A DNA stretch of 64,000 bases, from the sequence record PP886230; one strand, written 5' to 3'. The notes beneath the pieces were generated by a model. That model saw nothing but the letters and a program-made list of their open reading frames with translations. It was not told the DNA's origin and searched no databases. Below, in pieces: positions 1 to 64,000 of the stretch. Position numbers and translations under genes: made by a program. Every line of letters starts with the position of its first letter. The first letter of the stretch is position 1. This DNA comes from Escherichia phage vB_EcoM_E9.1.

Positions 1-1
1 C

Positions 2-421
2 GACAACGGTCAGCTTGGTGAATTATTTGGTTTACGACAAAATATTTTTCAGGCTATTGGTGAAGACACAACCAACTTAGTAAAAGACCCAACCGATTTA
101 CAAAATCGTGGTCTATACGTTGATGCGATACCAAGTATCAGTGATGAAATGCTTGATACGGTTCCAAGATTTATGAATCACCCATACATTGAAGATGGTA
201 TACAGAAAAAATTCATGCCTATCATTCCAGTTGCATATTGTCAACCAGGGAAAGGTGAAGCATTTTTCAACACTTTACTTCAGAACAATGAACATGGTAC
301 AATGGTAGGTGTAGAGTTCGAAATCACATCGGTTGAATTCGGATACTTTTCGCATGAATCAGTGAATTATGTTTCAGATACATTTTTGATTACATTGCAA
401 AACAATAACATAGGAGGTTAA
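2..421 (+). CDS. hypothetical protein, 5' end cut by window edge
   Basis: Open frame from nt 2 with no upstream stop, continuous with track ORF 149..421. Confidence 0.5.
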   Translation, partial: DNGQLGELFGLRQNIFQAIGEDTTNLVKDPTDLQNRGLYVDAIPSISDEMLDTVPRFMNHPYIEDGIQKKFMPIIPVAYCQPGKGEAFFNTLLQNNEHGTMVGVEFEITSVEFGYFSHESVNYVSDTFLITLQNNNIGG

Positions 422-422
422 T

Positions 423-734
423 ATGTTTAATCCGTTTTTTGACCCGTCTGGAATGACGGAAAAAGAACTACAGTTAAAAATTAATGAACAGTCAATGCGT
501 TTGACTTCTGCTCGTGCTGCTGGCCTAAGCGACATGATTATTGGTAATATGCAAACTGTCTTAAATCAATGTTATGCTGAACTAGAACTTCGCCAAGGAC
601 AAAAAGAAAAAACTGTTTATGACGAAGAAGACCCATGTATCTTCGATATGGATTCATATCTAACTGACAACGAAGAGGCCCAGAAGAAGAAAAATGAAAG
701 TACAAGGAAACAGATTTATAAGTCCCAATGGTGA
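423..734 (+). CDS. hypothetical protein
   Basis: Track ORF; strong RBS AGGAGG upstream of ATG (aggaggttaatATG). Confidence 0.6.
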   Translation: MFNPFFDPSGMTEKELQLKINEQSMRLTSARAAGLSDMIIGNMQTVLNQCYAELELRQGQKEKTVYDEEDPCIFDMDSYLTDNEEAQKKKNESTRKQIYKSQW

Positions 735-1212
735 TGTGAAATGTAATCTTAACGCAGTTGTTTATGCAATCAATTGCGGTGCAGATATCCAGTACTTACA
801 ATTGCAGGAAATTGATGAACCTGAAAGGTTGAAATTCAATGATAACTGTAAAAAATTTGGCTTAGAACAACGTATGCTGGATTATACAATTGAGCATGAT
901 AAAAATCATGAACTGTGGCGATATGATCCAGTATACGACAATATAAATCTGCGTGACTTTTTCTTACAAAAATGCACATCCGATGAAGCACGAAAACGTG
1001 TTGAGTATGAACTTGATTTATATGAATATTATAATATGACAAAGCTACTAAGATGTATGATATGGCTTGTTGATTATATGGAAGAAAATGAGATCTTTTG
1101 GGGTCTAGGTCGTGGAAGCTCTGTTGCATCATACTGTTTGTTTTTGATTGGACTACATATGGTAGATTCATTGAAGTACGAACTTGATGTTAACGAATTT
1201 TTGAAATGGTAG
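694..1212 (+). CDS. hypothetical protein (start uncertain)
   Basis: Track ORF overlapping upstream gene by 41 nt; true start may be internal. Confidence 0.4.
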   Translation: MKVQGNRFISPNGDVKCNLNAVVYAINCGADIQYLQLQEIDEPERLKFNDNCKKFGLEQRMLDYTIEHDKNHELWRYDPVYDNINLRDFFLQKCTSDEARKRVEYELDLYEYYNMTKLLRCMIWLVDYMEENEIFWGLGRGSSVASYCLFLIGLHMVDSLKYELDVNEFLKW

Positions 1213-1230
1213 AAAAACATGTGATATAAT
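1201..1230 (+). promoter_or_regulatory. sigma70-like promoter, extended -10
   Basis: TTGAAA-N18-TGTGATATAAT upstream of CDS 1276. Confidence 0.5.
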
Positions 1231-1275
1231 GTTTATTGTAGGCTTATATCACACATACAATAAAAGGATTTTGAT

Positions 1276-1620
1276 ATGTCTAAACATACAACTTATCGTG
1301 GTACAACAATTGACATGGATATGCTCAAGTACCAAAATCAACATCAGGTAGCATTGGGTAATGCTAATCTAAACGCACGTGGTGATAAAATCGGTTCCGG
1401 TGGAACAATTATTAAAACTCGTGAAGAGTTGATTCAAGAAAAAGAACGAGAAATGCAAATTCCTGATTATATCCCTGAACATCAACTTCATAGTACTGAA
1501 CATGGTACGGATGAAGTATGGGATGATGAGAGTTTTGAAGTTAAGCCCGAAGAACAAGAAGCTGAGGTTTCTGAAGAGAAGAAAGCACCACGTCGAGCTA
1601 GAACCAAAGATCAGGAGTAA
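1276..1620 (+). CDS. hypothetical protein, acidic C-terminus
   Basis: Track ORF; RBS AAAGGA upstream. Confidence 0.55.
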   Translation: MSKHTTYRGTTIDMDMLKYQNQHQVALGNANLNARGDKIGSGGTIIKTREELIQEKEREMQIPDYIPEHQLHSTEHGTDEVWDDESFEVKPEEQEAEVSEEKKAPRRARTKDQE

Positions 1621-1628
1621 TATATTAA

Positions 1629-1955
1629 ATGACTAATAAAGTAATGACTGCATGTAAAGGTAAAGTACTGGTAACTGAACTGGAACATGGTGAACGCAAA
1701 ACAGCAGGTGGTATCGTTTTAACAAACGATGACGGTAAAATTAGAGGTATTCGTTCTCGCTGGGCAAAAGTTTATTCTGTAGGCGAAGACATTACTGATA
1801 TTAAAGAAGGTCAATGGATTTTAATTGATCATGGTCGATGGTCAAGAACTATTGAAGTTGATGGTATTGAATTAAACTTGGTTGATTATCCAGCCGCAGT
1901 TAGTTTAGTTTCAGATGAAGATCCACGAACTAAAATGCTAACCTTTGGTCGTTAA
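1629..1955 (+). CDS. GroES-like co-chaperonin (Cpn10 family)
   Basis: KVLV..ERKTAGGIVLT...VYSVGED...IEVDGIELNLV matches GroES mobile-loop and beta-barrel pattern; RBS CAGGAG. Confidence 0.65.
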   Translation: MTNKVMTACKGKVLVTELEHGERKTAGGIVLTNDDGKIRGIRSRWAKVYSVGEDITDIKEGQWILIDHGRWSRTIEVDGIELNLVDYPAAVSLVSDEDPRTKMLTFGR

Positions 1956-1970
1956 TAAAATATAATTAAA

Positions 1971-1995
1971 GCTCGGATGAATATCTGGGCTTTTT
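1971..1995 (+). terminator. putative intrinsic terminator
   Basis: GCTCGG-loop-CTGGGC hairpin (2 G-U pairs) followed by TTTTT, 16 nt after stop of 1629..1955. Confidence 0.4.
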
Positions 1996-2008
1996 ATTTG
2001 GACAGATT

Positions 2009-2281
2009 TTGATGATAACTGATGATGGAAAATTTAGTTTCAAGGATGTAACATTAGTATCTAAAAACGGAAGATTCATGTTTGAAGATAGAAAAAATAC
2101 CAAATATGTATATGAAGTTTCACATGATATGTTTAAAGTTTTATTAGTTGCATCAGCCCAAGCTGAAAGTACTGGGATTAAAAATAAGGCAAATTCTTTT
2201 AATTTTTTATTAAATCAATTGGAAATGACAGAAGAACTTTTCACGGCTTTATTATATAATTCAGCCGATTGGATTCTATAA
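2009..2281 (+). CDS. hypothetical protein
   Basis: Track ORF; weak RBS. Confidence 0.4.
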   Translation: MMITDDGKFSFKDVTLVSKNGRFMFEDRKNTKYVYEVSHDMFKVLLVASAQAESTGIKNKANSFNFLLNQLEMTEELFTALLYNSADWIL

Positions 2282-2304
2282 CACGTACACATAAGGAAAT
2301 ACAA

Positions 2305-3258
2305 ATGACCACACTATGGACTGAAAAATATCGCCCACAATCAATGGAAGATTATGTATCAAAAAACGATGCACTACGCCAGAAAATGGAAGAATGGATT
2401 AAGACTGGTGACATTCCACATATTGGGTTTTTTGGCCCAGCAGGAACTGGTAAAACATCTGCGATCAAAGTACTAATTAATGGACTAGTTCAAAATGGAC
2501 ACCTTGATCCAAGTGATGTGACCACGCTTAACATGTCCGATGAAGGCATTGATGCTGTTCGTGACAAAATCGATGCCGCAGCAAAGCTATCATGTTTTGG
2601 TAGATATCGTATTTTTGTTCTTGAAGAAATGGAGCAGATGAACCACAAAGCACAAGGTAGTTTGAAACGTGTAATGGAAGACTATCATGAAAATGCTCGC
2701 TTTATTTTAACAAGTAACGAACCACATAAAATTCAAAAACCTATCATTTCTCGTGTTCAAGTTATTACAATCGAAAAGCATGATATGGAACAATTCATGA
2801 CTCGAATTTATAATATTCTTCTAGCAGAAGGTGTTGATTTGAGTAGTGATGATAGTGTTGAACAAGTTCAAAAGTACATCAATGCTTCCTATCCTGATTT
2901 CCGTAAAACACTAAACGTATTGCAAAGTTCAGTTGTTGATGGTAAGCTAGTAAAACTTGAAGATAGTATTGAAAATTCAGCAGGGTATCGTACTGCAATT
3001 GTTGAAGCATTAAAGGCAGGCAACATTCGCCAAATGCGTGAACAAATTGTACAAAATATCCCTGATGATGAGATGGATGCATTTTTCTCTTACTTGTACA
3101 GAAATGCTGAAATGTTCAGTACTGATGAAATCACACTGATGAAGATTAAAGTTAAAATTCGTGATGCAGTTGTTAAGCAAGCAACAGTATCAGACCGTGA
3201 AATGAATCTTAGTGCTTTACTGTGTGAGATTGACCTAATTTGTTCGGGGAACATGTAA
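2305..3258 (+). CDS. clamp-loader ATPase, gp44 / RFC small-subunit type (AAA+)
   Basis: LWTEKYRP N-terminus, Walker A GPAGTGKTS, and ...NASYPDFRKTLNVLQ... resembling T4 gp44 ...KNFPDFRKT...; start moved to ATG 2305 behind RBS AAGGAAA. Confidence 0.75.
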   Translation: MTTLWTEKYRPQSMEDYVSKNDALRQKMEEWIKTGDIPHIGFFGPAGTGKTSAIKVLINGLVQNGHLDPSDVTTLNMSDEGIDAVRDKIDAAAKLSCFGRYRIFVLEEMEQMNHKAQGSLKRVMEDYHENARFILTSNEPHKIQKPIISRVQVITIEKHDMEQFMTRIYNILLAEGVDLSSDDSVEQVQKYINASYPDFRKTLNVLQSSVVDGKLVKLEDSIENSAGYRTAIVEALKAGNIRQMREQIVQNIPDDEMDAFFSYLYRNAEMFSTDEITLMKIKVKIRDAVVKQATVSDREMNLSALLCEIDLICSGNM

Positions 3259-3884
3259 TGAAACCACGTTGTATAGTTTTTGATTGTGATGAAGTTCTAT
3301 TGGACCATATGGGTATGCTTTCTGAGTTTGTAAAACAAACTTATAATATCACACCATCAACACCATACCCATTAGAATATGATTTATCAGACTGGTTGGG
3401 TGTTCCTCAACCTGAAGTTAAAAAGATTCTTGAACAGTTCAACCAACAATCATATTTGTTTGGGTTGTTAAAGCCAGTCGAACCAAATACAGTTGATATT
3501 GTACAAGAGCTACGTGATCGTTTTCATAAAGAAAAATTCGTAGTACTCACAAAATGTGGTAAAAAAGGCTATGGTGAAGTTTTACGAAATGTAAATCTAA
3601 TGCGTGAATTTGGTGAAAACTGCTTTGATGAGATTATTATCATAGAAATGAATGAATCAAAGAAAGAAGCATTAGAGGATTTACAAACACGATATGATGT
3701 AAAACTAATGATTGATGATTATATCAATAATATTGAAACTGCTATGGGTCTTGGTATTCCATCAGTTATGATGGGATGTTCTCATAATACTATGTATAAG
3801 AATCATAGTGGTTTTGAATATATCGAAAACTGGACAGAACTTAGACTGAAAATTTATTCAGTACTAGGTAAATATTACAAATAA
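3258..3884 (+). CDS. HAD-superfamily hydrolase, putative 5'(3')-deoxyribonucleotidase
   Basis: N-terminal CIVFDCDEVLLDH fits HAD motif I (DxDx[TV]); start ATG overlaps upstream stop (TAATG). Confidence 0.5.
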   Translation: MKPRCIVFDCDEVLLDHMGMLSEFVKQTYNITPSTPYPLEYDLSDWLGVPQPEVKKILEQFNQQSYLFGLLKPVEPNTVDIVQELRDRFHKEKFVVLTKCGKKGYGEVLRNVNLMREFGENCFDEIIIIEMNESKKEALEDLQTRYDVKLMIDDYINNIETAMGLGIPSVMMGCSHNTMYKNHSGFEYIENWTELRLKIYSVLGKYYK

Positions 3885-3896
3885 AACTTTTAAATT

Positions 3897-3920
3897 GGGG
3901 TTTGATTCAAACCCCTTTTG
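3897..3920 (+). terminator. intrinsic terminator
   Basis: GGGGTTTGA/TCAAACCCC hairpin followed by TTTTG. Confidence 0.7.
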
Positions 3921-3980
3921 TTGTATTTTAAAAGTAGTAAATAGTATTATATGTGCTAGTTTTTAAGGATAATATAAAAT

Positions 3981-4544
3981 ATGGACGATTTAGATTATAC
4001 AGATAATGCTATTCAGCAGTTGTATGATAACAGTGGTATGTTAGATATACTTCTTGCTGTAGAGAAATATTTCGATGATAATGATTTATATGCGTATAAA
4101 GGAATTATTGAGGGTGAGTTGGTAGAGGGGCCAATTGTAAGTAAGTATTGGTGTACTGTTACATTTAAATACTATCGTGAAAATTTTCCCGATCCTACCG
4201 CATTCTCTATTTTAGAGAAACATGGAACTAAAGTATATGTTAAAGCTGATTATGAAATAACTCCTATTAAAGAACCAAATCGTCAAGCTGACATGAAAAG
4301 TGTAGCGACACAATCTGGCTCTGTACGTATACCAAAAAATGAAAGAATCCCAGTACTATTGGTTAGAGTGCAGATTCCACGAAACTTGATTAATCCAGAA
4401 AGTTTTGATGAATATAAACTAATGGCAGCAGAATTCAATAGTAATCCAATGAATTCTCCTGAGAATATTGAAGAACCTGTAACTGGTGATGATGTGGATT
4501 TAGATGTAGAAGTAACGGATGAGACACAAGAAGGTGGAATGTAA
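3981..4544 (+). CDS. hypothetical protein
   Basis: Track ORF; RBS AAGGA. Confidence 0.55.
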   Translation: MDDLDYTDNAIQQLYDNSGMLDILLAVEKYFDDNDLYAYKGIIEGELVEGPIVSKYWCTVTFKYYRENFPDPTAFSILEKHGTKVYVKADYEITPIKEPNRQADMKSVATQSGSVRIPKNERIPVLLVRVQIPRNLINPESFDEYKLMAAEFNSNPMNSPENIEEPVTGDDVDLDVEVTDETQEGGM

Positions 4545-5224
4545 TGAAAAAGAAATTAAATGAACAAGGCTTACGTCCGCAAGTTCTCAAAGATTTGATT
4601 CATCCTATCATTAGTGTTGATGAATATACTCCTAAAATTGAAGATAGTAATATTGTTATTATGTTTCAGGTACTTAACAATTTTGATGCAGCATATGATT
4701 TATCTTCTTTTATTGAAAAATCACCTATTGATGTAGCTGATACAGAAGCAGCAGAAACACCAAATTTAGATGGTCGATATCAAGTTTATGTTGAAATGGA
4801 ACGAAATGCCGAATTCCCTGAAAAACTTTTACGTTTAATTAAAACTATTGAAAATATTTGTCCAGACCCAGGTTGGAAAATACAACTATATGGTGTTAAT
4901 GACCCAATCGATGTTGATTTTGAAGAAATACAGCAGAGAATTGATTTGGGTATTCCTAGTTCAATTAGTGAGTTCCTTGATTATGCTGGTGTTTCAGTAA
5001 TCAAAGAAGGAAACATGTTGACATTAAAAACAGCATATGGTAAATTACATTACAGTACTGGAAGCGGTTTTGTTTCAGAAACATATGTGAAAAAGTTATT
5101 AAAGAATGATACACAATTAGACACTTCGCGTCTTAGTTCCATACTAGGGGAAAGCTATACAGTACTACGAAGTGGTGATCAATATGTAATTGGAAGAAAC
5201 GGGAAATATTTGGTGTTGCGATGA
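4544..5224 (+). CDS. hypothetical protein
   Basis: Track ORF; start overlaps upstream stop (coupled). Confidence 0.55.
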   Translation: MKKKLNEQGLRPQVLKDLIHPIISVDEYTPKIEDSNIVIMFQVLNNFDAAYDLSSFIEKSPIDVADTEAAETPNLDGRYQVYVEMERNAEFPEKLLRLIKTIENICPDPGWKIQLYGVNDPIDVDFEEIQQRIDLGIPSSISEFLDYAGVSVIKEGNMLTLKTAYGKLHYSTGSGFVSETYVKKLLKNDTQLDTSRLSSILGESYTVLRSGDQYVIGRNGKYLVLR

Positions 5225-6039
5225 GAATTTTAAATATGCTTAAATCTCTTCACGAAACAACCAAATTACATCAGGATGAAAAGTATCGTCGCAGCCTTAC
5301 TAAAGATTTAGCATGTCGTATGTATATGCGTAGATTTGAAATTTCAAGAATTGGTAAAGGCTGGGATGATGTAAATCGTGAAGACATTGATCCAGATGCA
5401 ATTTTTAAAGCATACATGGCTAGAAAAGTTTTCATAAATGAAAAAACTTTTTATATTGATAGTGATAGAGAATTAGAAAATAAATTTACAAAAGGTTTAT
5501 GGAAGATATGGTGTGTTGAAGTATTCGGTGAAGTATTACCTGAGCCACCTGTTCCAGAAACTTATAAAGATTTAAAAAGTATTTTTGATAATGAACATAT
5601 ACATTCAAATTTCTCATTATATGATACTGTGTCAGAAGCTGTATTTTATGGTGAGTTACATGGTCATAACAAATACTTTGATAGTATGGTTAGTTTTGAT
5701 TTGTTTTGTCACTTGCCTGGTGTATCAAGTTGGACATGTGACCAACACAGAGCAAGTAAGATTGATAAGCGAAAATTCTCGGCCCAAAGATTTATGCAAG
5801 TTGCTATGAGTATGTATAAACTTGATTATCTTGGTTGTCCAGAACCATATAAACATTTTTGGAAAGAAAGAGCACAAAAATGTTTAAACTATTGTATAAT
5901 CCGTTTAATGGACACATACATTCTTAAGTTTAGAAATGCAACTGTATACGACATGCCTGAACCACCAAAGAATGAAAAATATCCACCTGTCAAGACATTT
6001 GTATGGTACAAGGATAAAAGTAACAAAAGGATGCACTAA
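5221..6039 (+). CDS. hypothetical protein
   Basis: Track ORF; ATGA overlap with upstream gene. Confidence 0.55.
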   Translation: MRILNMLKSLHETTKLHQDEKYRRSLTKDLACRMYMRRFEISRIGKGWDDVNREDIDPDAIFKAYMARKVFINEKTFYIDSDRELENKFTKGLWKIWCVEVFGEVLPEPPVPETYKDLKSIFDNEHIHSNFSLYDTVSEAVFYGELHGHNKYFDSMVSFDLFCHLPGVSSWTCDQHRASKIDKRKFSAQRFMQVAMSMYKLDYLGCPEPYKHFWKERAQKCLNYCIIRLMDTYILKFRNATVYDMPEPPKNEKYPPVKTFVWYKDKSNKRMH

Positions 6040-6054: not shown

Positions 6055-6065
6055 CTTTTCAGGTG

Positions 6066-10912: not shown

Positions 10913-10937
10913 GGGAGTACTTTGTACTCCCCTTTTC
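10913..10937 (+). terminator. intrinsic terminator
   Basis: GGGAGTAC-TTT-GTACTCCC hairpin followed by CTTTTC. Confidence 0.7.
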
Positions 10938-10950
10938 TATGGGGTGTACT

Positions 10951-18927: not shown

Positions 18928-19788
18928 ATGAAACCTATCCGAGTACTTTCTCTTTTTAATGGAATGAGTGTGGGATATATGGCATTGCAAGATGCTGGTA
19001 TCCCAGTTGAAAAATATTATTCATCCGAAATTGACAAGTACGCAATAGCTGAATCTCAAGCTAACTTTCCTGATATTATCCAATTGGGTGATGTAACTAA
19101 GTGGAGAGAATGGGATATTGAGTGGGATAAAATAGATTTATTAATGGGTGGTTTCCCATGTCAAGCCTGGTCAGTTGCAGGTAAACAGGGTGGTTTAAAT
19201 GATATACGTGGGCAGTTATTTTTAGTAATGGTTGAAATTTTTGATCATATCAAAAGTCTCAATCCTAACTTGAAATTTCTGTTTGAAAATGTTAAAATGA
19301 AGGAAGATTTCAAAGAATACATTAATAGTATTTTAGGAATCACGCCAGTACTGATAAACTCCCAGCATTATACGCCTCACTTCAGGCAGAGATATTACTG
19401 GTACAGTACTGATAAGCTTTTTATACCACCTGCATTATCCAATGCACCTAAACTTCAAGATATTATTGAAGATGGTTGGTACACTGACAGAACCGCTTCG
19501 TACTGTATAGATGCTAACTATTTTAAAGGTGGTGATTGTAACCAGTACTTTAATAAATCCAGACGACAATTGGTGTTTCGTGACCCAGTGATCAGTCGTC
19601 AATATCTATTAGAGAATGGCAAAAGAAATATTGACTATAGACACTTAAGTGTAGTAGAATGTTGTAAATTACAGGGTGTTCCTGAAGATTTCTTTAAAGT
19701 GTCTAGTAAGACACAAGCATACAAAATGCTTGGGAATGGATGGACTATGCCAGTTATATCACATTTACTAAGAGAGATATTCTTTTGA
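18928..19788 (+). CDS. DNA (cytosine-5)-methyltransferase
   Basis: Motif I LFNGMSVG, motif IV GGFPCQAWS (PCQ), motif VI ENV, motif VIII FRQRYYW, C-terminal GNGWTMP; RBS AAAGGA. Confidence 0.8.
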   Translation: MKPIRVLSLFNGMSVGYMALQDAGIPVEKYYSSEIDKYAIAESQANFPDIIQLGDVTKWREWDIEWDKIDLLMGGFPCQAWSVAGKQGGLNDIRGQLFLVMVEIFDHIKSLNPNLKFLFENVKMKEDFKEYINSILGITPVLINSQHYTPHFRQRYYWYSTDKLFIPPALSNAPKLQDIIEDGWYTDRTASYCIDANYFKGGDCNQYFNKSRRQLVFRDPVISRQYLLENGKRNIDYRHLSVVECCKLQGVPEDFFKVSSKTQAYKMLGNGWTMPVISHLLREIFF

Positions 19789-30079: not shown

Positions 30080-30208
<129 letters not shown>

Positions 30209-30653: not shown

Positions 30654-31067
<414 letters not shown>

Positions 31068-31124: not shown

Positions 31125-31162
<38 letters not shown>

Positions 31163-31526: not shown

Positions 31527-32164
<638 letters not shown>

Positions 32165-45351: not shown

Positions 45352-46317
45352 GTGAAAAAGCTTGATTTAAATACAATTGCCGAAGAAGTTCTGGATGAAT
45401 GTTTTGCTAATGAAGAAGTCAACACACTAGAAGCCTTAGATTTCGTTGAAGATAAAGATGATAATGAAGGTAAAGTACAAAGCAGTTTCAAATATAATAT
45501 TACACTTAAGCGACCACCAAATGTTTCCAATGAAGATCTAATTCGTGATATTCAAGCTGGTATCAATGTAAAGAAAAACACTGAACTGTTAGTTCGTTAC
45601 AATTATGGACTGATTATTGATGTAGCAAGTAAATGTACTTGTTATATCCCATTTGAAGATAAGATTTCATATGGTGTTGAGGGGTTCATGAGAGCACTAA
45701 AAACCTTTGATCTTAATAAGAATGTTAAGTTCATTACCTATGCTTCTTCTAGTATTTACATGACAGTCTATAACGAAAGTTCTGACGCTAACTATATGGT
45801 ACACTTCCCACGTTATATGAGTGTTCATAAGATCAAAGTAAAAAGATTCTGCCAGGAATATATGCGTAAACATGGTGTTCGCCCAACACCTGAAATAATC
45901 TCAGAGGGTACTGGGATTGAGATTCAGCATGTTAATAATTGTTTGTTATTTCAAAGCGAATACACTTCGCTGGATGCACCATTAGACGGTGTTACAGATG
46001 GTACATTAGGTGACATTATTCATTCACCTGCTTCTGATTTTAACCTCAATGTTGATAGTATCCGTGCACCTTTGCGTTATGCTATCAATGAACTGACCAA
46101 CGAATTGAGTACTAAAGAACGTGAGATTATCCAGCGTGTTCATGGTCTAGGTGAATATGAACCTGAAACGCTTCGTGAGATTGCTGATAATGGTTTTGTT
46201 GATGATAATGGAAAATATGTTAAATCCCGTTCATCAATACATCGAAAGTACAGTGAAGCTATGCAAAAGCTTAAGAAGTTAGTACTTGCAAAAGGGTACG
46301 AATACGAAGATTTCTAA
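45352..46317 (+). CDS. sigma-70-family RNA polymerase sigma factor
   Basis: Region 2-like ELLVRYNYGLIIDVASKC...VEGFMRALKTFD...FITYASSSIY...HFPRYM; region 4-like KEREIIQRVHGLGEYEPETLREIADN; GTG start 6 nt after AGGAG. Confidence 0.65.
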   Translation: MKKLDLNTIAEEVLDECFANEEVNTLEALDFVEDKDDNEGKVQSSFKYNITLKRPPNVSNEDLIRDIQAGINVKKNTELLVRYNYGLIIDVASKCTCYIPFEDKISYGVEGFMRALKTFDLNKNVKFITYASSSIYMTVYNESSDANYMVHFPRYMSVHKIKVKRFCQEYMRKHGVRPTPEIISEGTGIEIQHVNNCLLFQSEYTSLDAPLDGVTDGTLGDIIHSPASDFNLNVDSIRAPLRYAINELTNELSTKEREIIQRVHGLGEYEPETLREIADNGFVDDNGKYVKSRSSIHRKYSEAMQKLKKLVLAKGYEYEDF

Positions 46318-48699: not shown

Positions 48700-48727
48700 T
48701 TGACATAAGATATCAGTACTGTATAAT
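48700..48727 (+). promoter_or_regulatory. sigma70-like promoter
   Basis: TTGACA-N16-TGTATAAT. Confidence 0.6.
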
Positions 48728-52797: not shown

Positions 52798-53030
52798 TAC
52801 TAAGTTTTGTTGTTGCACTATTGTTTATGTTCTATCCTACACTAGTGGCATTAGCCACTAGGCGAACGATGGTAGATCTCACTACTGTATTCTTGCTAAA
52901 CGTGGCATTAGTACTGGTGTCTATTATCATTCCAGTGAGCTTTACAGTTATTGATATTATTTCGGTATTACTCTTCGTGTTAAGTTATCTTATGCTTATT
53001 GAAGAAACAAATGTTGACAAACGTTCGTAG
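52788..53030 (+). CDS. small membrane protein
   Basis: Track ORF; hydrophobic. Confidence 0.45.
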   Translation: MYLVLSFVVALLFMFYPTLVALATRRTMVDLTTVFLLNVALVLVSIIIPVSFTVIDIISVLLFVLSYLMLIEETNVDKRS

Positions 53031-53041
53031 TACTGTATAAT
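53014..53041 (+). promoter_or_regulatory. sigma70-like promoter
   Basis: TTGACA-N16-TGTATAAT overlapping the end of CDS 52788..53030. Confidence 0.55.
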
Positions 53042-58020: not shown

Positions 58021-58025
58021 TAAAA

Positions 58026-58060
58026 AGGGGTTGACTAAGGTCAGCCCTTTGTTGTATCAT
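58026..58060 (+). terminator. terminator-promoter cassette, copy 2 of 5 (variant loop TAAG)
   Basis: GGGTTGAC-TAAG-GTCAGCCC hairpin + TTTGTTG; TTGACT in the stem, TATCAT downstream. Confidence 0.5.
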
Positions 58061-58089
58061 AAATTCTCAATATAACTGAGGTATCATAT

Positions 58090-58203
58090 ATGCAAGGTTT
58101 GAAATTTGTAGTTGCTGCACTCATCGCCGCAGTACTGGTTGGTGGTGTATTCTATGTAGTGGATCAAAAAGTAAATCCACCTGCACAAGAACAATCTAAG
58201 TAA
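58090..58203 (+). CDS. small membrane peptide (37 aa)
   Basis: Below track cutoff; RBS TGAGG; MQGLKFVVAALIAAVLVGGVFYVV... Confidence 0.4.
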   Translation: MQGLKFVVAALIAAVLVGGVFYVVDQKVNPPAQEQSK

Positions 58204-58209
58204 CAAAAT

Positions 58210-58242
58210 AAGGTTGACTTCGGTCAGCCTTTTCTTTATACT
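58210..58242 (+). terminator. terminator-promoter cassette, copy 3 of 5
   Basis: AAGGTTGAC-TTCG-GTCAGCCTT hairpin + TTTCTTT; TTGACT-N17-TATACT. Confidence 0.55.
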
Positions 58243-58265
58243 ATAAATATAGACATAGAGAAAAA

Positions 58266-59543
58266 ATGAAATCTATGGAGAGAAATCAAATGCCAAGTAA
58301 TTTTACTGATAAAAATGGTGGTAACATGGCTGGTCACTCTGATAAATGGAGTGAACGCAACCGCCGTCCAAATAGTTATCAAGCAGGTCAAGGTTCACGT
58401 GGATCACGTAACCAAGGAACTGGTCTAGCTGGTAAAGCAAACGCAGAAGCAGGTGAAGTTAAGAGTACTGAGAACATGACTGAGCTAGAAAAGCTACGTT
58501 ATGTTAATTCATTGGGACTTCTTAATGCTACACAAAAACAACGCCTAGCTGATATGGAACGTGAAGAAAAAGAAAAATCTGCTCCTGCTAAAGAAGAACC
58601 AAAACAAGAAGCACCAAAGGCGGTTAACCCTGTCAAAGAACTGTCGGATAAGTTAGGTAAGATTTTTGCTAATAAACCACAACTTATCCAAGGTATTGTG
58701 AAAGAATTGCAATCTGTACCTAAAGAAGAATTAAAAGTCAAAGCACAAGCTGTGCTTGATGCAATGAGTGGAAATACCAGTACTGAACCAACTGAAGTAT
58801 TCAGTACTATAATGCGTGCACTTGAAGGTACGCAACAAGGTGATGTGCCTGCACAAGAGGAAGTAAGTCTTGAAAGCGTACTTAAAACATTTGATAGTAT
58901 TGGTAAAGAAGACCGTGCTAATGCTCAACAAGTTAAGAATGTACTAGCTAAGTTAGAAAACCGTCTGGAAGGTAAAGACGATAAGATTAAATTAGTATCT
59001 GATGCAGTTAACGATGCACTTAAATCTTATGTACAAGGTGAAAAGAGTCGTTTTGTAACTGCAATGGATGCTGCATTCAATACTATGAAAAAGTATGAAG
59101 CTGATCATGGTGAGAAGGTTACACGAGATGGTTATCTGATGCGTGATGATGAAGAAGGTGCAGTAGAACAGAACGATGTTCATTCAGACGAAGAAATTGA
59201 TGACATGGAAGCTGAACTGTCACAAGACCGCCAAATGACTGAAAAATCCCATAACGAACTACAGAAATTAATGCAATGGGTTGCAGATGTTGGTGAAAAA
59301 GCTGGTGCTGATAAGAAGAGTATAAACCGAAATCTTAGTTGGATTAAAGATAAAGTTGGTAACAACGCTCGTAAACTACAAAAAGCGTGGACTGATGTAG
59401 TGAATGGTGCTGTTGACATTGATGTTGAATCCGGTGAGGCATATGATTATGCATTGACTACACTTGATGACTCTTTCCGTGATTACGAAAATGGAAATGT
59501 AACTCCTTGGGAAAAGGACATCATGAGCAAATACGGTAAATGA
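58266..59543 (+). CDS. hypothetical protein (425 aa), Gly/Ser-rich N-terminus, acidic coiled-coil rest
   Basis: Track ORF; ...LEKLRYVNSLGLLNATQ... paralogous to 57637 motif. Confidence 0.55.
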   Translation: MKSMERNQMPSNFTDKNGGNMAGHSDKWSERNRRPNSYQAGQGSRGSRNQGTGLAGKANAEAGEVKSTENMTELEKLRYVNSLGLLNATQKQRLADMEREEKEKSAPAKEEPKQEAPKAVNPVKELSDKLGKIFANKPQLIQGIVKELQSVPKEELKVKAQAVLDAMSGNTSTEPTEVFSTIMRALEGTQQGDVPAQEEVSLESVLKTFDSIGKEDRANAQQVKNVLAKLENRLEGKDDKIKLVSDAVNDALKSYVQGEKSRFVTAMDAAFNTMKKYEADHGEKVTRDGYLMRDDEEGAVEQNDVHSDEEIDDMEAELSQDRQMTEKSHNELQKLMQWVADVGEKAGADKKSINRNLSWIKDKVGNNARKLQKAWTDVVNGAVDIDVESGEAYDYALTTLDDSFRDYENGNVTPWEKDIMSKYGK

Positions 59544-59551
59544 TAAAACAA

Positions 59552-59584
59552 AAGGTTGACTTCGGTCAGCCTTTTTTTGTAAAT
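59552..59584 (+). terminator. terminator-promoter cassette, copy 4 of 5
   Basis: AAGGTTGAC-TTCG-GTCAGCCTT hairpin + TTTTTTT overlapping stop; TTGACT in stem. Confidence 0.6.
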
Positions 59585-59614
59585 ACAAAAGAGGAATTAA
59601 GAAGAGGGATTACA

Positions 59615-59866
59615 ATGAAAAAATATATTATATTTGGAATTGTATTATTTTCCAGTACTGCTTATGGTGCAGATTATCATTGCTCCGTAGCAAGGCAGGA
59701 TTTCAGAAATGGGGAGTTCTATACTACCTCATACACAAAAGGAATAATACACGACACCGACAGAACTATTGGATTTAATGCGTTTGACAACAAAGATTCA
59801 TATACTTCAGGTATACTATCTGAGCGTAAGACTGATGTAATGGGAATAGAAAAAGAGTTCCGGTGA
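59615..59866 (+). CDS. secreted protein (signal peptide)
   Basis: Internal ATG of track ORF 59540..59866 behind AGAGGGA; MKKYIIFGIVLFSSTAYGA. Confidence 0.5.
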   Translation: MKKYIIFGIVLFSSTAYGADYHCSVARQDFRNGEFYTTSYTKGIIHDTDRTIGFNAFDNKDSYTSGILSERKTDVMGIEKEFR

Positions 59867-59876
59867 TTCAGTAGCA

Positions 59877-60176
59877 ATGTGCAATGGCATTGAAAGTACT
59901 AAAACAATTTATTATAATAATGAACGTAACTATCGTTTTCATAATTTAACCACAAATAAAAGTTTACTATTTTACAATTGTAAAGAAGTAATACTCCCAT
60001 CAGACAATAGCTGTACTCCAACTAATCAACCCCCAGCACAATGTAATACTCCCTCTGAACCTGATAAAAATAAAAAAGACAAAAAACCTTTAAAAGATAA
60101 AAAGAAAGATAAAAAACCTAATCCGTTTAAAAATAATAAACAAGCACAACCCGATATGACGTGTAAAATAAAATAA
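59877..60176 (+). CDS. hypothetical protein with Lys-rich low-complexity tail
   Basis: Track ORF; ...DKNKKDKKPLKDKKKDKKPNPF... Confidence 0.35.
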   Translation: MCNGIESTKTIYYNNERNYRFHNLTTNKSLLFYNCKEVILPSDNSCTPTNQPPAQCNTPSEPDKNKKDKKPLKDKKKDKKPNPFKNNKQAQPDMTCKIK

Positions 60177-60185
60177 GGATATATA

Positions 60186-60605
60186 ATGAAAAAGATTTTT
60201 TTAAGTATTATTTTAGTACTTTTTAGTTTTAATGTATATGCAGCAGATGCTAAACAGGTTGCAAATACAGTAAAAGATGTTATAGTAGATAATGCTCCTA
60301 CATTAGAGGAAATTGGGGTAAAAACTTGTGATATAGTAATATATAATTTAGTTAATGATGAACGAGTTATGTTGAATACGTATGAACAAGTAGTCCCATT
60401 GGTTGAATCTGGTGATGCTTTTAGCTTTACATATAAAGTTAAATTAACAGGAGGGGTTGAAGTTAATCTTGACATTGATACCGCTTCAGTACTAAAAGAT
60501 AAACTAGGATATGTGTTCAATCGTATTCGTGAAGAAGGTCATCTTAAGTATGTTTATGAAAGTAAAATACTAAAACGTGCAATAGTTATAGAAAACTGTA
60601 AATGA
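60186..60605 (+). CDS. secreted protein (signal peptide)
   Basis: N-terminal MKKIFLSIILVLFSFNVYAADA. Confidence 0.5.
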   Translation: MKKIFLSIILVLFSFNVYAADAKQVANTVKDVIVDNAPTLEEIGVKTCDIVIYNLVNDERVMLNTYEQVVPLVESGDAFSFTYKVKLTGGVEVNLDIDTASVLKDKLGYVFNRIREEGHLKYVYESKILKRAIVIENCK

Positions 60606-60611
60606 TAATAA

Positions 60612-60646
60612 AAGGGTTGACTTCGGTCAGCCTTTTTTGTTATGAT
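60612..60646 (+). terminator. terminator-promoter cassette, copy 5 of 5
   Basis: AAGGGTTGAC-TTCG-GTCAGCCTT hairpin + TTTTTT; TTGACT-N18-TATGAT. Confidence 0.6.
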
Positions 60647-60674
60647 GTTGGTATTAACTACAGAGGATAAAGTA

Positions 60675-61316
60675 ATGACTAAGCAAGACATATTCAAAAC
60701 TTTAATTGACATTTTGCGTCCATCAAAAACTCGTTGTGCGATGGAGTTTGATATTCCTTATGCTGAACGCGTAATCTTTCCACAAGTTAAAGCTGCTGGA
60801 CTTACTTTGCTTGGAATGGGGATGTACTCTGTAGTAGTTGAACATAAAAACTATCCTGGGCGTGCATTTAAAGTAACCACTTCACGCTGGGATGGTTTTC
60901 GTGCTTATGCAAAGTACTGCATTGAAAACGCAGGAACCAAGTTTCTTCCAGTGATCTACAGTGCAAACGAACAAGGAAACTTTGGATGGTATGAGATGGA
61001 CAAGTACTATCCTATAATTAAACAAAAAAATAATTATGATGACTTTGTTAGTACTAAAATTGGAGATTTATATTCTTATGCACATGCTGGTCAGTACGCT
61101 ACTTCAGTGAATGATATGCGTGGAAATTCTGAAGAGATTGCTATTGCGACGGTCGCTGCTAACATCATGAAAGAGTTTCACGGGCGTTTTGTACCAGACA
61201 TTCATTCCAGTAATGTCATGATGGATAAAGATGGCAATGTATTCATTACTGATCCTCTTTCGTGTGATGTACGTAGAGAAATACCAGTTACTGAAGAAGA
61301 TCCAGTTTTTTATTGA
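60675..61316 (+). CDS. hypothetical protein, possible protein-kinase-like fold
   Basis: ...FVPDIHSSNVMMDKDGNVFITDPLS... resembles kinase catalytic loop (D-x-H-x2-N) plus metal-binding Asp; ATG 60675 behind AGAGGA. Confidence 0.45.
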   Translation: MTKQDIFKTLIDILRPSKTRCAMEFDIPYAERVIFPQVKAAGLTLLGMGMYSVVVEHKNYPGRAFKVTTSRWDGFRAYAKYCIENAGTKFLPVIYSANEQGNFGWYEMDKYYPIIKQKNNYDDFVSTKIGDLYSYAHAGQYATSVNDMRGNSEEIAIATVAANIMKEFHGRFVPDIHSSNVMMDKDGNVFITDPLSCDVRREIPVTEEDPVFY

Positions 61317-61377
61317 CAGAACTGATGTTCTGGTGTATTCTTAATAAACCATAAAAATTGCGGTAAAGGATAAAATC

Positions 61378-61659
61378 ATGCGTTCATTTGAAAACTTAAT
61401 AGGTAAGCATCTTTTATCTGAAATTGATGCAGACGTTAAAGAATTATCCAAATCAAAAAGTTACATTCATTTGGATGAACTGTTTATTAAGTACGGTGAG
61501 ATTGGTTTTAAGTCATTATTTGTTTTTACTATGAAAGTACATAGTTTAAAGTACTTCGATTTGAGTGCTAAAGATGGTGAACCGAATCTATATTACATGT
61601 ATTACCTTAAGAACAAAGATGAAGCTAATACATTACTCTCTGAATATATATTGGGGTAA
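61378..61659 (+). CDS. hypothetical protein
   Basis: Track ORF; RBS AAAGGA. Confidence 0.5.
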   Translation: MRSFENLIGKHLLSEIDADVKELSKSKSYIHLDELFIKYGEIGFKSLFVFTMKVHSLKYFDLSAKDGEPNLYYMYYLKNKDEANTLLSEYILG

Positions 61660-61661
61660 AA

Positions 61662-62000
61662 ATGGAACAATATTTTGAATTAATAAACAAAGTATCATTT
61701 TATGTAGTATCTTTGGTTTGGGTGTATTATATGTTTTGCTACATTATTGCATTCTTCCGATACACTACTTTATATGAACGTATCTATTATGATGCCCCAA
61801 TTTCATTCTTGATGTTTTGTGCATGTACGTGGGGAATATTAGAAGTACTGATATGTGGGTATAGTACTGATGAATTAAATCTGGTATCGGTCTTGACTGG
61901 GTTTTCATTTGTTGTTATGATAGCTGCCGTTCCAGTATGGTTGTTCTTTGGACTAGTTCATCGCATTGATATATGGCGTTCTAATATCCCTGAAAAGTAA
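61662..62000 (+). CDS. membrane protein, tandem paralog 1 of 3
   Basis: Hydrophobic; C-terminal ...RSNIPEK. Confidence 0.5.
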   Translation: MEQYFELINKVSFYVVSLVWVYYMFCYIIAFFRYTTLYERIYYDAPISFLMFCACTWGILEVLICGYSTDELNLVSVLTGFSFVVMIAAVPVWLFFGLVHRIDIWRSNIPEK

Positions 62001-62009
62001 GGATTGGTA

Positions 62010-62351
62010 ATGATTTATTACACTAACATGTTTGCCTATGCTGTTGCTTGCATTTACATTGTGTACTTCTTATTCGGTGGAGTACTGTGCTTCTTTAAGT
62101 ACAAAACGTTGTTCAACCGAATGTACCCAAATCATCCAATTGTGGTTGTACTTTTGATTCTTTCAGTTTCTCAAATAATAGTTGAAACTACAATGGGTAT
62201 CAGTAGTGTACATTATAGTTTTGGTACTATAGTAATTATTACTATGCTTATTGCATACATTTTAGTACTTGGATATGGTATCTTTGGTAATATTGGTATG
62301 AAAATGTATCATCGAATTAAAACATTACGTGATAATCTACCGGAGCGTTGA
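62010..62351 (+). CDS. membrane protein, tandem paralog 2 of 3
   Basis: ATG 62010 inside track ORF 62004..62351; C-terminal ...RDNLPER. Confidence 0.5.
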   Translation: MIYYTNMFAYAVACIYIVYFLFGGVLCFFKYKTLFNRMYPNHPIVVVLLILSVSQIIVETTMGISSVHYSFGTIVIITMLIAYILVLGYGIFGNIGMKMYHRIKTLRDNLPER

Positions 62352-62352
62352 T

Positions 62353-62697
62353 ATGTATAATTTGAACCTAATCTCATATATTATAACAACACTGTTTACA
62401 TTCTATGCCTTTGTTGGTATAATCCTACTGTACTTTAAATTTTATAAAGTGTTTAACCGTTTCTATCCTTCAATGGAGAATGAGTTTTTCTTTGTGTTGT
62501 ACGTAGGTTACACATTAATGGCTACATGTTTCACTGTAGCCGATGGTGTCATCGGCATTAAAACTGATTCCCCAAATGGTAGTACGCTGGTTGCATTTAT
62601 TCTTACTGGATTCCTTGCAACTTATATTGCCTTCATTACAACATGGTCAGTGGTTGAATTTCTCTTGCGACTACGAAAGAATATGCCGAATCGATAG
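62353..62697 (+). CDS. membrane protein, tandem paralog 3 of 3
   Basis: ATG 62353 inside track ORF 62329..62697; C-terminal ...RKNMPNR. Confidence 0.5.
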   Translation: MYNLNLISYIITTLFTFYAFVGIILLYFKFYKVFNRFYPSMENEFFFVLYVGYTLMATCFTVADGVIGIKTDSPNGSTLVAFILTGFLATYIAFITTWSVVEFLLRLRKNMPNR

Positions 62698-62706
62698 GAG
62701 ACATAT

Positions 62707-62961
62707 ATGTTTGCGTTGCGTAATAAAAACACTAAAGAATTATTATGTATTGATACCGTATGGGATTGTGCGGGGTCAACTACAGTTCTTGAAGAAGGAA
62801 CTGGATATTGCGTGTTTGTTGTACATGATAGGAATGAACTCGAATTATTACTTGCTGAGTTCAATGCTGGTGGTAATCCTAACAGTACTGAATACCCTGA
62901 GATTATCAATCCAGCACCACCAGGCTCTTATGAAATTCTACAACTGTGGGAGTTGAAGTAA
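62707..62961 (+). CDS. hypothetical protein
   Basis: Track ORF; RBS TAGGAGA. Confidence 0.5.
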   Translation: MFALRNKNTKELLCIDTVWDCAGSTTVLEEGTGYCVFVVHDRNELELLLAEFNAGGNPNSTEYPEIINPAPPGSYEILQLWELK

Positions 62962-63341
62962 TGCGTCAAATGCACAAAGTAACCGAGCTAAACAAGCGTC
63001 TGGTTAAACAATCAATGTTCGAGGATAAAGAGTCTTATTATAACTTTAAACGTGCTGTAGAGGCTGCTATCCACATTCAGAAGCTTAAAGAACGTGGTTG
63101 TATTATTCTGGAAAATGGGTCGGAAGTTGTAACGGATGACTTTAGTGTAGCGTTTGATGTTTCACCTGACGGGACGCTATCAATGCCCCGCTTAGGAACT
63201 GGAAACATGACTGTTTGGGTTGGCTTCACTATGGGGAATGTACCTGGTACTGTGTACGTAGATGATGCGGAATTGAAAGACAGTTTCAAAAACTTATCTT
63301 ATCTTGAACCACAATACGCACATGAAATGAATTTATTTTGA
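62961..63341 (+). CDS. hypothetical protein
   Basis: ATG 62961 inside track ORF 62946..63341; TAATG coupling. Confidence 0.5.
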   Translation: MRQMHKVTELNKRLVKQSMFEDKESYYNFKRAVEAAIHIQKLKERGCIILENGSEVVTDDFSVAFDVSPDGTLSMPRLGTGNMTVWVGFTMGNVPGTVYVDDAELKDSFKNLSYLEPQYAHEMNLF

Positions 63342-63342
63342 G

Positions 63343-63370
63343 TTGACAAACACATTCAGTACTGTATAAT
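63343..63370 (+). promoter_or_regulatory. sigma70-like promoter
   Basis: TTGACA-N16-TGTATAAT upstream of CDS 63418. Confidence 0.6.
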
Positions 63371-63417
63371 GCTTATCAAGGGGATGAACTTCTCATCCCT
63401 ACAATCGAGGAACTACC

Positions 63418-63972
63418 ATGATTACTTTTAAGAAAACTGCTAACCACATCCATGAAATCTACATTAACGGTCACAAAGCTGGCCTTCTTCGTTTACTCGC
63501 CCATCATCCTGATGTTACCGTATCTGATAATGAACCTAAAGATTGGCGTGTATTTTTCTTTGGAAAGTACAGTGATTTTCAAGTATCAAACCTGAAGAAC
63601 ATTCGTTCAGTATGCACGTTAACTGAAATTAAAGAAAAGTTAGAAAAAGCATTGAAAACTAATCCAGATGGTGTTCTTCCACCTGATAACTTTGTAGAGA
63701 AAGGTTATGCATTAGCTCATTTCAAAGATGGTACTATTCAATCTATCAGTACTGAATATGAATATCAATGGACTGAGTACTTCACTTATGGATCGCGTAA
63801 TACATTGATGGCTTCACGTAGTAAATTGGAAGAAGTACTGACTCGTATGAATGAACGCGAGCGTCAATTTTATGACAAACCAGAAATGTGGAGTTCAACT
63901 TACATTGACCGTATTGACTATGTTATTATGACTCCAATCTTTGACACTGCTTACTATGATTCTTTGAAATAA
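63418..63972 (+). CDS. hypothetical protein
   Basis: Track ORF; RBS GAGGAA. Confidence 0.55.
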   Translation: MITFKKTANHIHEIYINGHKAGLLRLLAHHPDVTVSDNEPKDWRVFFFGKYSDFQVSNLKNIRSVCTLTEIKEKLEKALKTNPDGVLPPDNFVEKGYALAHFKDGTIQSISTEYEYQWTEYFTYGSRNTLMASRSKLEEVLTRMNERERQFYDKPEMWSSTYIDRIDYVIMTPIFDTAYYDSLK

Positions 63973-63983
63973 GGATAACTTAT

Positions 63984-64000
63984 ATGAAACTACGTACTCG
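63984..64000 (+). CDS. start of next gene (3' end beyond window)
   Basis: ATG behind RBS AAGGA; only 5 codons visible. Confidence 0.3.

Follow-up and report, generated by a model that had tools for sequence, protein, structure and literature searches.

Cellular genomes carry several short exact words that recur in hundreds to thousands of copies and are selected in all reading frames as well as in noncoding DNA. These include Chi (GCTGGTGG), the uptake signal and DNA uptake sequences (USS/DUS) and the FtsK-orienting polar sequences (KOPS), all of which are asymmetric, depend on orientation and are read on one strand or by a translocase. Other functions of a whole DNA molecule rely on palindromic sites read by protein dimers, namely the SlmA-binding sites (SBSs), the Noc-binding sites (NBSs) and the parS sites of ParB, which number in the tens and span 12–16 bp. 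Phage genomes are known for palindrome loss. Here we describe a hexamer, AGTACT, that differs from the Chi-type words in being palindromic, symmetrically flanked and carried by viruses. We analysed a window of 64,000 nucleotides, the whole stretch under study, from Escherichia phage vB_EcoM_E9.1 (sequence record PP886230). An earlier note, made from the letters of this window, had claimed that AGTACT is about ten-fold over-represented independently of reading frame and had taken this to imply selection for a DNA-level function.

AGTACT is a DNA-level signal under both positive and purifying selection, read with two-fold symmetry and kept at a regionally controlled density. By megablast the window is 99.8% identical to PBECO4 and 97.7% identical to 121Q, which places it among the Asteriusvirus jumbo coliphages, with genomes of ~350 kb. 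Its genes, called simply as longest open reading frames (ORFs), lie nearly all on the plus strand and are small and unannotated. Whole-genome figures are those of ECO103 4-12-1 (hereafter ECO103), a 350-kb phage of the same species, and conservation was measured against TH47, a relative at 82.6% identity. Other relatives were mostly sampled over 20–100 kb, with a RaK2-like phage covered over 337.5 of its 347.5 kb, and the host frequency comes from a single 50-kb sample of E. coli K-12.

Results

Exact counting finds 166 copies of AGTACT in the window (2.6 per kb), more than of any other hexamer. Base composition predicts 21.5 copies, a 7.7-fold excess, and 100 dinucleotide-preserving shuffles gave 17.6 ± 4.4 with a maximum of 32. 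The ten-fold figure of the earlier note is therefore a fair one (7.7- to 9.4-fold depending on the null), and its counts for individual sampled stretches are borne out. CAGTACTG and TCAGTACTGA, named there as frequent forms, occur 36 and 10 times. A maximum-order Markov model expects 127 copies and was dropped as a null, being uninformative because the sub-words AGTAC and GTACT themselves carry the excess. Over the whole of ECO103, AGTACT is again the commonest hexamer, with 918 copies against 119 expected (7.7-fold).

Codon usage does not account for this excess. ORFs in the window hold 146 sites, whereas a synonymous shuffle that fixes the proteins and the codon pool of each gene yields 39.7 ± 5.6 and a shuffle of codon order yields 21.0 ± 4.5. 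No hexamer deviates more from the synonymous shuffle than AGTACT (z ~17), and the next in rank are its own overlapping words CAGTAC and GTACTG. Each codon phase is enriched 3.3- to 4.6-fold, with 64, 32 and 50 sites in phases 0, 1 and 2 against 19.2, 7.0 and 13.7 expected from the same shuffle. Noncoding DNA is as dense in sites as coding DNA (20 sites or 2.78 per kb, and 146 sites or 2.57 per kb, respectively). The two shuffles, the excess in all phases and the equal noncoding density rule out an artefact of codon or amino-acid usage, and no concentration in a single phase was found.

The depletion of palindromes that had been offered as a backdrop proves stronger than claimed. GCGC is absent from the window, where ~48 copies are expected, and from all 350 kb of ECO103, where ~300 are expected. 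No copy is present of 26 of the 64 palindromic hexamers in the window and of 23 of the 64 in ECO103, the missing words including GGATCC, CTGCAG, GTCGAC, CCATGG, GGTACC and CGTACG, and in ECO103 GATC, CTAG, TCGA and AGCT reach roughly half of their expected counts. Against this strong purging of restriction sites, AGTACT alone stands out as a large exception. We rejected the idea that it arose by transition from GCGC-type sites as these were purged (AGCGCT to AGTACT), as only ~32 AGCGCT are expected against the 918 AGTACT.

The core of the motif is exact and its flanks are graded. None of the 18 single-mismatch variants of AGTACT is enriched in the window, where their ratios run from 0.3 to 2.0. 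On both strands of the ECO103 genome, C at position -1 is 2.7-fold over-represented and G stands at 0.47-fold, T is preferred at -3 and -4, and TTC is the most common upstream triplet. The flanks are dyad-symmetric, and the extended preference TTC-AGTACT-GAA (TTCAGTACTGAA) is a 12-bp palindrome. CAGTACTG occurs 204 times in ECO103 against 3.5 expected (58-fold), while GAGTACTC makes up 4 of the 918 sites. Symmetry also holds on the sense strand, with C at -1 in 41–43% and G at +6 in 47–48% of sites. A core that is exactly palindromic, set between graded symmetric flanks, indicates two-fold symmetric reading of duplex DNA rather than a signal in RNA or in a single strand.

Selection is visible in how proteins are encoded. 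In ECO103, 373 of 707 Ser-Thr dipeptides (53%) are written AGT-ACT, where codon usage predicts at most 109, and 57 of 78 Gln-Tyr pairs followed by a T-initial codon (73%) are written CAG-TAC-T, where 6.5 are expected. Val-Leu pairs written GTA-CTN are preceded by A in 75% of cases, compared with 32% otherwise. Since the dipeptides Ser-Thr, Val-Leu and Gln-Tyr are themselves ~1.45-fold over-represented, and the reversals Thr-Ser and Leu-Val are not, AGTACT also shapes protein sequence.

Conservation tells the same story. In the TH47 alignment 80 of 113 AGTACT sites are conserved (71%), compared with 39% for hexamers in general, and this is the highest value among 92 words of the same composition. 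Where the residue is conserved, codons within the motif are retained more often than elsewhere: TAC in 23 of 23 cases versus 62%, ACT in 90% versus 67%, AGT in 94% versus 81% and CTG in 82% versus 46%. Gains and losses between the two phages involve many different substitutions with no dominant path. Because this turnover consists of substitutions in aligned, ungapped sites, we rejected spread of the motif as a mini-insertion (a 12-bp element). These patterns argue for selection over mutation bias. The earlier claim of DNA-level selection thus stands, on frame independence, noncoding density, conservation of sites and of synonymous codons, and dyad-symmetric flanks.

The density of AGTACT is graded along the genome. 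It is ~1.5 per kb in the structural-gene region of ECO103, 2.5–3 per kb in regions like the window and 6.8 per kb in a hot region, with a similar density for ~5 kb further; noncoding DNA within the hot region reaches up to ~10 per kb. This region aligns to the 21-kb direct terminal repeat of phage fEgEco12, which was defined experimentally and through which the boundaries of the ECO103 repeat are inferred. Positions at which AGTACT is synonymously accessible are realised in 70% of cases in the hot region and 44% in the genome bulk, but in 0 of 52 cases in two arrays of small paralogous genes (Table 1). Values of 0%, 44% and 70% in neighbouring regions exclude a genome-wide mutation or repair bias, and region-specific selection suffices to explain them. 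The second AGTACT-free stretch extends as far as the inferred inner edge of the terminal repeat, and both arrays are AGTACT-poor in TH47 as well.

Sites are spaced almost at random. The mean interval in the window is 382 bp, with a coefficient of variation of 0.84 and a largest gap of 1437 bp, and the coefficient in ECO103 is 1.1 outside the hot region; regular spacing or phasing was rejected on these grounds. The commonest short spacing genome-wide in ECO103 is 20–22 bp.

One of the two arrays is instead rich in AGTACA. Its copies occupy all codon phases and noncoding DNA, carry C(-1)/G(+6) flanks like those of AGTACT, and lie predominantly on the sense strand (Table 1). The array is kept in TH47, at ~72.5–80 kb of the sampled stretch; the RaK2-like genome has the hot region, and the AGTACA array was not seen there. 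The adjoining tandem array encodes diverged paralogues that share a C-terminal '(L/F)LGT(N/D/Q)(Y/H/F)QE' motif, and ~17 of them lie in the second AGTACT-free stretch, which is devoid of both AGTACT and AGTACA. None of the models that we considered accounts for the AGTACA array or the motif-free array.

The terminal repeat has other peculiarities. Its equivalent in ECO103 holds 11 copies of Chi against ~0.12 expected, nine of them on one strand, and the whole genome holds 28 against 1.9 expected (~15-fold). From their orientation we infer that the nine would be active against RecBCD entering the right genome end and the other two against RecBCD entering from the left end. A megablast search with 25,000 bp of the ECO103 terminal-repeat region matched 203 phage records at 80–90% identity, including unrelated coliphages (Phapecoctavirus, Justusliebigvirus) and 13 Campylobacter phages, which indicates a short element common to these phages in this region (a tRNA, promoter or mobile gene, for instance).

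Enrichment of about 6- to 10-fold is found in four Rak2-like genera and in the Munch group, five lineages in all. It is 7.1-fold in TH47 (Asteriusvirus), 6.1-fold in CBB (Mimasvirus) and 5.7-fold in Munch (unclassified group). The RaK2-like Klebsiella phage (Alcyoneusvirus) has 920 copies in 337.5 kb, XbC2 (Mimasvirus) has 52 against 5.8 expected, and fHe-Yen9-04 (Eneladusvirus) has 47 against 4.9. XbC2 was isolated on Xanthomonas and has kept the enrichment. The Pseudomonas relative PA5oct has a single copy in 25 kb. A general trait of low-GC coliphages was rejected, since neither T5 (1 copy against 9.8 expected) nor T4 (4 against 10.1), each over 30 kb, is enriched. The E. coli sample holds 3 AGTACT (0.06 per kb, or ~one per 17 kb) and 327 GCGC, so the phage density of AGTACT is ~43-fold that of the host sample. 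GCGC is absent from the sampled TH47, RaK2-like, Munch and CBB sequences; it is present in PA5oct, at a normal level, and in T4 and T5.

Scanning IMG/VR for two closely spaced copies of CAGTACTG recovered jumbo phages and a second group, made up of contigs of ~31–34 kb (in a set that includes contigs of 25–34 kb) with 40–42% GC. Among their gene products are a large serine recombinase, a lambda-type terminase, a tape-measure protein and a J-like tail protein. Searches of phage and E. coli collections gave no nucleotide match to these contigs. Their terminase has relatives in prophages of two members of the Enterobacteriaceae, Phytobacter diazotrophicus and Leclercia sp. The contigs form a previously uncharacterised group of temperate siphovirus-like phages of Enterobacteriaceae.

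These 33-kb phages share the motif in detail. AGTACT is 10- to 17-fold enriched and GCGC is absent; 54% of Ser-Thr dipeptides are written AGT-ACT, and their ORFs hold 342 sites against 88 ± 8 after synonymous shuffling. The flanks are those of the jumbo phages, with C at -1 2.9-fold and G 0.36-fold and T preferred at -3 and -4, and between the two groups the palindrome profiles show correlations of r = 0.97 (tetramers) and 0.87 (hexamers). The recurrence of AGTACT and its flanks in an unrelated group shows that the motif is not a quirk of one lineage. A search with tblastn and 130 family hidden Markov models (HMMs) found T4-type lysozyme as the only protein common to the two groups, apart from one further weak match, to a membrane protein, that is probably spurious. 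Either the reader of AGTACT is external to these phages (a host protein, for example), or the groups have converged, or a small, fast-evolving reader gene escapes detection.

The window is the early, host-takeover region of the genome, marked by a phage-encoded sigma-70-family factor (Table 1) and home to sigma-70 promoters that bear the motif. Its counterpart in CBB has been described as an early, host-takeover region under RpoD-like promoters (PMC5259590). Six sigma-70-type promoters in the window follow the pattern TTGAC-N10-AGTACTG(N)TATAAT, which upholds the earlier description of AGTACT as part of a conserved promoter module. In this module the spacer contains the hexamer, with its 3' TG directly against the -10 element. 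Two of the six carry a second AGTACT at the -35 element. Such placement is operator-like, and these copies may be either functional or a legacy of promoter duplication. ECO103 has 21 such modules, 14 of them in the 300–330 kb hot region with the terminal repeat. Most sites lie elsewhere: in the window 6 of the 166 AGTACT fall within modules and 160 (~96%) outside them, mostly within genes.

Further copies occur in terminator-like hairpins (at 10916, 26454 and 35384) or adjoin tRNA genes. Several lie at or next to the ends of genes in the tRNA cluster, which also has promoter modules between tRNAs, and at 30113–30118 the arrangement TATAAT-tatt-AGTACT abuts the apparent 5' end of a tRNA-Ser gene.

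A separate signal concerns late promoters. TATTTA (6 copies against 48) and TAAATA (18 against 50) are the most avoided hexamers in plus-strand genes of the window under the synonymous shuffle. They resemble ATAAATA, the T4-like late promoter reported in CBB and GAP32. This avoidance suggests that spurious late promoters are selected against, on either strand, in early genes.

Table 1. Coordinates of features in the window and in ECO103. Promoter modules begin at the first position listed unless another start is given.
Feature	Sequence	Position	Strand	Remarks
Early promoter TTGACTAAATAGTTCAGTACTGTATAAT	window	30655..30682	+	AGTACT in spacer; the G after it supplies the TG next to -10
Early promoter, two AGTACT 20 bp apart	window	31129..31162	+	Module from 31134; AGTACT at 31129 abuts and overlaps -35 TTGACT; AGTACT at 31149 in spacer, ahead of gATATAAT (canonical extended -10, TGnTATAAT)
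Early promoter, TTGACT ... TGATAAAAT	window	31890..31923	+	Module from 31895; AGTACT at 31890 and 31910, same two-site architecture as at 31129..31162
Early promoter TTGACATAAGATATCAGTACTGTATAAT	window	48700..48727	+	
Early promoter TTGACAAACGTTCGTAGTACTGTATAAT	window	53014..53041	+	
Early promoter TTGACAAACACATTCAGTACTGTATAAT	window	63343..63370	+	
Terminator-like hairpin GGGAGTAC-TTT-GTACTCCCC, then T run	window	10913..10938	+	AGTACT part of stem; found by eye
C5-cytosine DNA methyltransferase	window	18928..19788	+	286 amino acids; PF00145; DNMT3-like
tRNA cluster	window	~29-34 kb		
Sigma-70-family factor, phage-encoded	window	45352..46317	+	Regions 2, 3 and 4; domain scan, G17 annotation
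TelA-like protein, clamp-loader subunit, protein kinase	window			Encoded in the early region
AGTACT-free gap, 2.1 kb	ECO103	84,009-86,112		
PD-(D/E)XK, Cas4-like nuclease gene	ECO103	84,696-85,394		Inside the AGTACT-free gap
Orphan N6-adenine methyltransferase	ECO103	260321-260842		PF05869, phage Dam family
AGTACT-free arrays of small paralogous genes	ECO103	285,377-293,663 and 296,096-301,095		Just inside the repeat
AGTACA array, paralogous genes of ~170-200 amino acids	ECO103	285,377-294,700		52-53 AGTACA sense, 10 antisense
Tandem array of ~20 diverged paralogous genes of 70-105 amino acids	ECO103	~295.3-301.0 kb		
Hot region, terminal-repeat equivalent	ECO103	~301.0-323.4 kb		

Discussion

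We tentatively favour a reading in which AGTACT serves as a high-density tag on phage DNA, bound by a dimeric sequence-specific protein, and doubles as an operator at early promoters. AGTACT, extended to TTC-AGTACT-GAA, would be a positively selected, two-fold-symmetric recognition site that recurs about once per 380 bp. Its reader would be a symmetric dimer, whether phage-encoded, borne in the virion or encoded by the host, and would not be the C5 methyltransferase of the window. It would occupy its sites on the entering and replicating genome and thereby mark, organise or shield the DNA as 'phage', with the terminal repeat and the early region carrying the heaviest load. Where sites lie in the spacer, and sometimes also at the -35 element, of early sigma-70 promoters, their occupation would act as an operator, linking the shut-off of early genes to how much reader is present. 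We infer both that the reader is a DNA-binding protein and what its binding achieves. The earlier suggestion of a binding or modification site is best taken as binding, with modification possible only through an enzyme other than the C5 methyltransferase.

Several observations weigh against this proposal. Searches by tblastn, profile HMMs, Pfam scans of selected genes and the literature found no reader protein; in particular, Pfam scans of the genes around the sigma factor and of the accessory genes of the 33-kb phages gave no DNA-binding domain that could be nominated. With lysozyme as the sole shared protein, nothing supports a phage-encoded reader common to both groups, and a reader from the host is conjecture. 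The 33-kb phages make no promoter-module use of AGTACT, so the operator role cannot be its general function. An exact hexamer that tolerates no mismatch resembles the target of a restriction or modification enzyme more than that of a typical transcription factor. A simple symmetric binder does not account for the strand-specific AGTACA array, and the sites show no phasing that would indicate a structured coat. The enrichment in XbC2 is more easily reconciled with inheritance in the phage clade than with an Enterobacteriaceae-specific factor.

A bolder version, which we regard as doubtful, is that unrelated enterobacterial phages have converged on an identity code. Saturation with TTCAGTACTGAA, combined with the purging of GCGC and most other palindromes, would allow a shared reader, a host protein or the product of a small mobile gene, to separate phage from host DNA in the service of protection, organisation or expression. 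If true, the code would be a viral counterpart of Chi and the uptake sequences, and the sense-strand AGTACA array would be one of its regional dialects.

Rather than being bound, AGTACT could be the substrate of a DNA enzyme, such as a methyltransferase, another base modifier or a ScaI-like nicking or cutting enzyme. Such an enzyme would mark or open phage DNA for self-marking, recombination-dependent replication or concatemer formation at the terminal repeats. We consider this unlikely, even though absolute specificity for a hexamer is typical of type II recognition and these phages encode both an N6-adenine methyltransferase of family PF05869 and PD-(D/E)XK nucleases. The peak of AGTACT in the terminal repeat, where Chi is also concentrated, would suit recombination or end processing, and the AGTACA array would allow action on one strand only at an asymmetric half-site. 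Graded symmetric flanks reaching ±4 bp are, however, unusual for type II enzymes, and protective methylation gains nothing obvious from extra target sites. DNA of fEgEco12 is cut normally by ten other enzymes (ScaI not among them), which speaks against bulk modification of the DNA.

The enzymes at hand fare no better as candidates. The earlier note had hinted at a link between AGTACT and the window's C5-cytosine methyltransferase, and we reject it. Over its whole length this protein aligns with the catalytic domain, with its short target-recognition domain (TRD), of the CpG enzyme DNMT3, and CpG methylation of RaK2 DNA has been reported from bisulfite sequencing (PMC3622015). Because the enzyme is DNMT3-like, RaK2 is CpG-methylated and AGTACT contains no CpG, the C5 methyltransferase is an unlikely reader; nor do the 33-kb phages have a detectable homologue. 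The protein is closest to eukaryotic DNMT3A/B/C (E ~1e-23) and less close to bacterial enzymes such as M.HhaI and M.HaeIII, and a DNMT3-like CpG methylase in a coliphage is itself unusual.

A second methyltransferase in ECO103 is the orphan N6-adenine enzyme of the phage Dam family (Table 1), a family in which some members have relaxed specificity. The enrichment is not accompanied throughout by a cognate methyltransferase, since neither of the jumbo-phage methyltransferases has a detectable homologue in the 33-kb group, and nor do the jumbo-phage nucleases. We also rejected a homologue of the Munch 'type II restriction endonuclease' as the AGTACT enzyme, since nothing about it points to AGTACT specificity. 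It is a PD-(D/E)XK, Cas4-like nuclease with 80–84% identity across genera, a conservation that makes it probably a core replication or recombination enzyme. The ECO103 gene for a nuclease of this kind lies inside a gap without AGTACT that is among the longest outside the arrays (Table 1), which may be coincidence.

It is highly improbable that AGTACT provides decoy or hijack sites that titrate or activate a protein of the Enterobacterales host, for example SlmA to block division. The idea draws on the SlmA consensus GTGAGTACTCAC, which has AGTACT at its core, on the occurrence of the extended motif in two unrelated phage groups that infect the same host family, and on the lack of enrichment in the Pseudomonas phage PA5oct. 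The SlmA site is, however, a 12-bp sequence, GT-R-AG-Y-R-CT-Y-AC, in which G, T, A and G are required at positions 1, 2, 4 and 5 (PMC3020112). With G and T needed at positions 1 and 2 and a purine at 3, the required flanks are absent or depleted: GTRAGYRCTYAC has no match in 350 kb, GAGTACTC accounts for 4 of 918 sites, and GTG (0.29-fold) and GTA flanks are depleted, so AGTACT is not an SBS. T4 and T5 share the host and are not enriched, and XbC2 comes from Xanthomonas and is. LexA was rejected as well, with one match in 350 kb to its box CTGT-N8-ACAG and none to the full consensus TACTG(TA)5CAGTA. The literature gave no other E. coli protein with an AGTACT site: a full-text search returned no paper connecting these phages, or any bacterial DNA-binding protein, with AGTACT, CAGTACTG or ScaI, and a looser search of work on operators and repressors returned none containing AGTACT.

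A role at the level of RNA, with AGUACU or the self-complementary CAGUACUG acting as an element for RNase cleavage or binding or for RNA–RNA pairing, strikes us as very unlikely too. Transcription of the window almost wholly from one strand would suit it, as would the gradient of density from terminal repeat through early region to structural region and the sense-strand specificity of the AGTACA array (53 against 10). A single-strand signal has no need of dyad-symmetric flanks on the sense strand, however, and AGTACT also lies in promoter spacers, upstream of the transcription start. Palindromes make up 64 of the 4,096 hexamers (1.6%), and the AGTACT palindrome extends to 12 bp.

Least probable of all is that AGTACT has no function and is a neutral by-product of mutation or repair bias (of a very-short-patch-like kind), codon or amino-acid usage or palindrome purging: coding and noncoding densities are alike, enrichment accompanies extreme restriction-site avoidance with correlated palindrome profiles in both phage groups, and AATACT is mildly depleted, but the two codon shuffles exclude codon and amino-acid usage, AGTATT and AATACT are too little depleted to supply a 7- to 13-fold excess, no substitution path dominates the TH47 gains and losses, accessible sites are realised at anything from 0 of 52 to 70% within one genome, T4, T5 and E. 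coli share the host background and are not enriched, and the sites are conserved well above background.

AGTACT points to an undescribed sequence-specific reader or DNA transaction in a much-collected set of jumbo phages that are therapeutic candidates (PBECO4, 121Q, RaK2, GAP32, CBB). Some ~900 ScaI sites per genome predict either extreme sensitivity to ScaI-type restriction systems or protection from them. Any engineering or recoding of these genomes would have to respect the motif, and the joint signature of abundant AGTACT and absent GCGC offers a simple way to detect this phage syndrome in metagenomes by sequence.

Among known systems, AGTACT is like the Chi-type words in that it reshapes synonymous codon and dipeptide use and separates own from other DNA. 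The 58-fold enrichment of CAGTACTG exceeds the ~15-fold of Chi in the same ECO103 genome; the 33-kb phages have essentially no Chi. The polar strand bias of such words was sought for AGTACT and none was found; only AGTACA is biased, in one 9-kb array of ECO103 (53 against 10). The proposed action resembles that of SlmA, Noc and ParB at their sites, which are likewise palindromic, read by dimers, present in many copies and devoted to a whole-molecule function. It differs from those sites in having ~900 copies and an exact core of 6 bp.

AGTACT is also exactly the type II site of ScaI and Eco255I, and the genome around it shows textbook restriction avoidance. Unlike the avoided sites, it is 8- to 13-fold enriched, and no ScaI-type enzyme was identified. 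Its place at early promoters recalls the operators of phage early repressors, dyad sites in the spacer or at the -35 element that are sometimes paired two helical turns apart. Only 6 of its 166 window sites belong to promoter modules, however, with the others mostly within genes, and the 33-kb phages lack the module. Hyper-abundant selected oligomers are known as a kind, and we found no prior description of an AGTACT signal. What is new is a palindromic, virus-borne signal common to unrelated phages, which could represent a new class.

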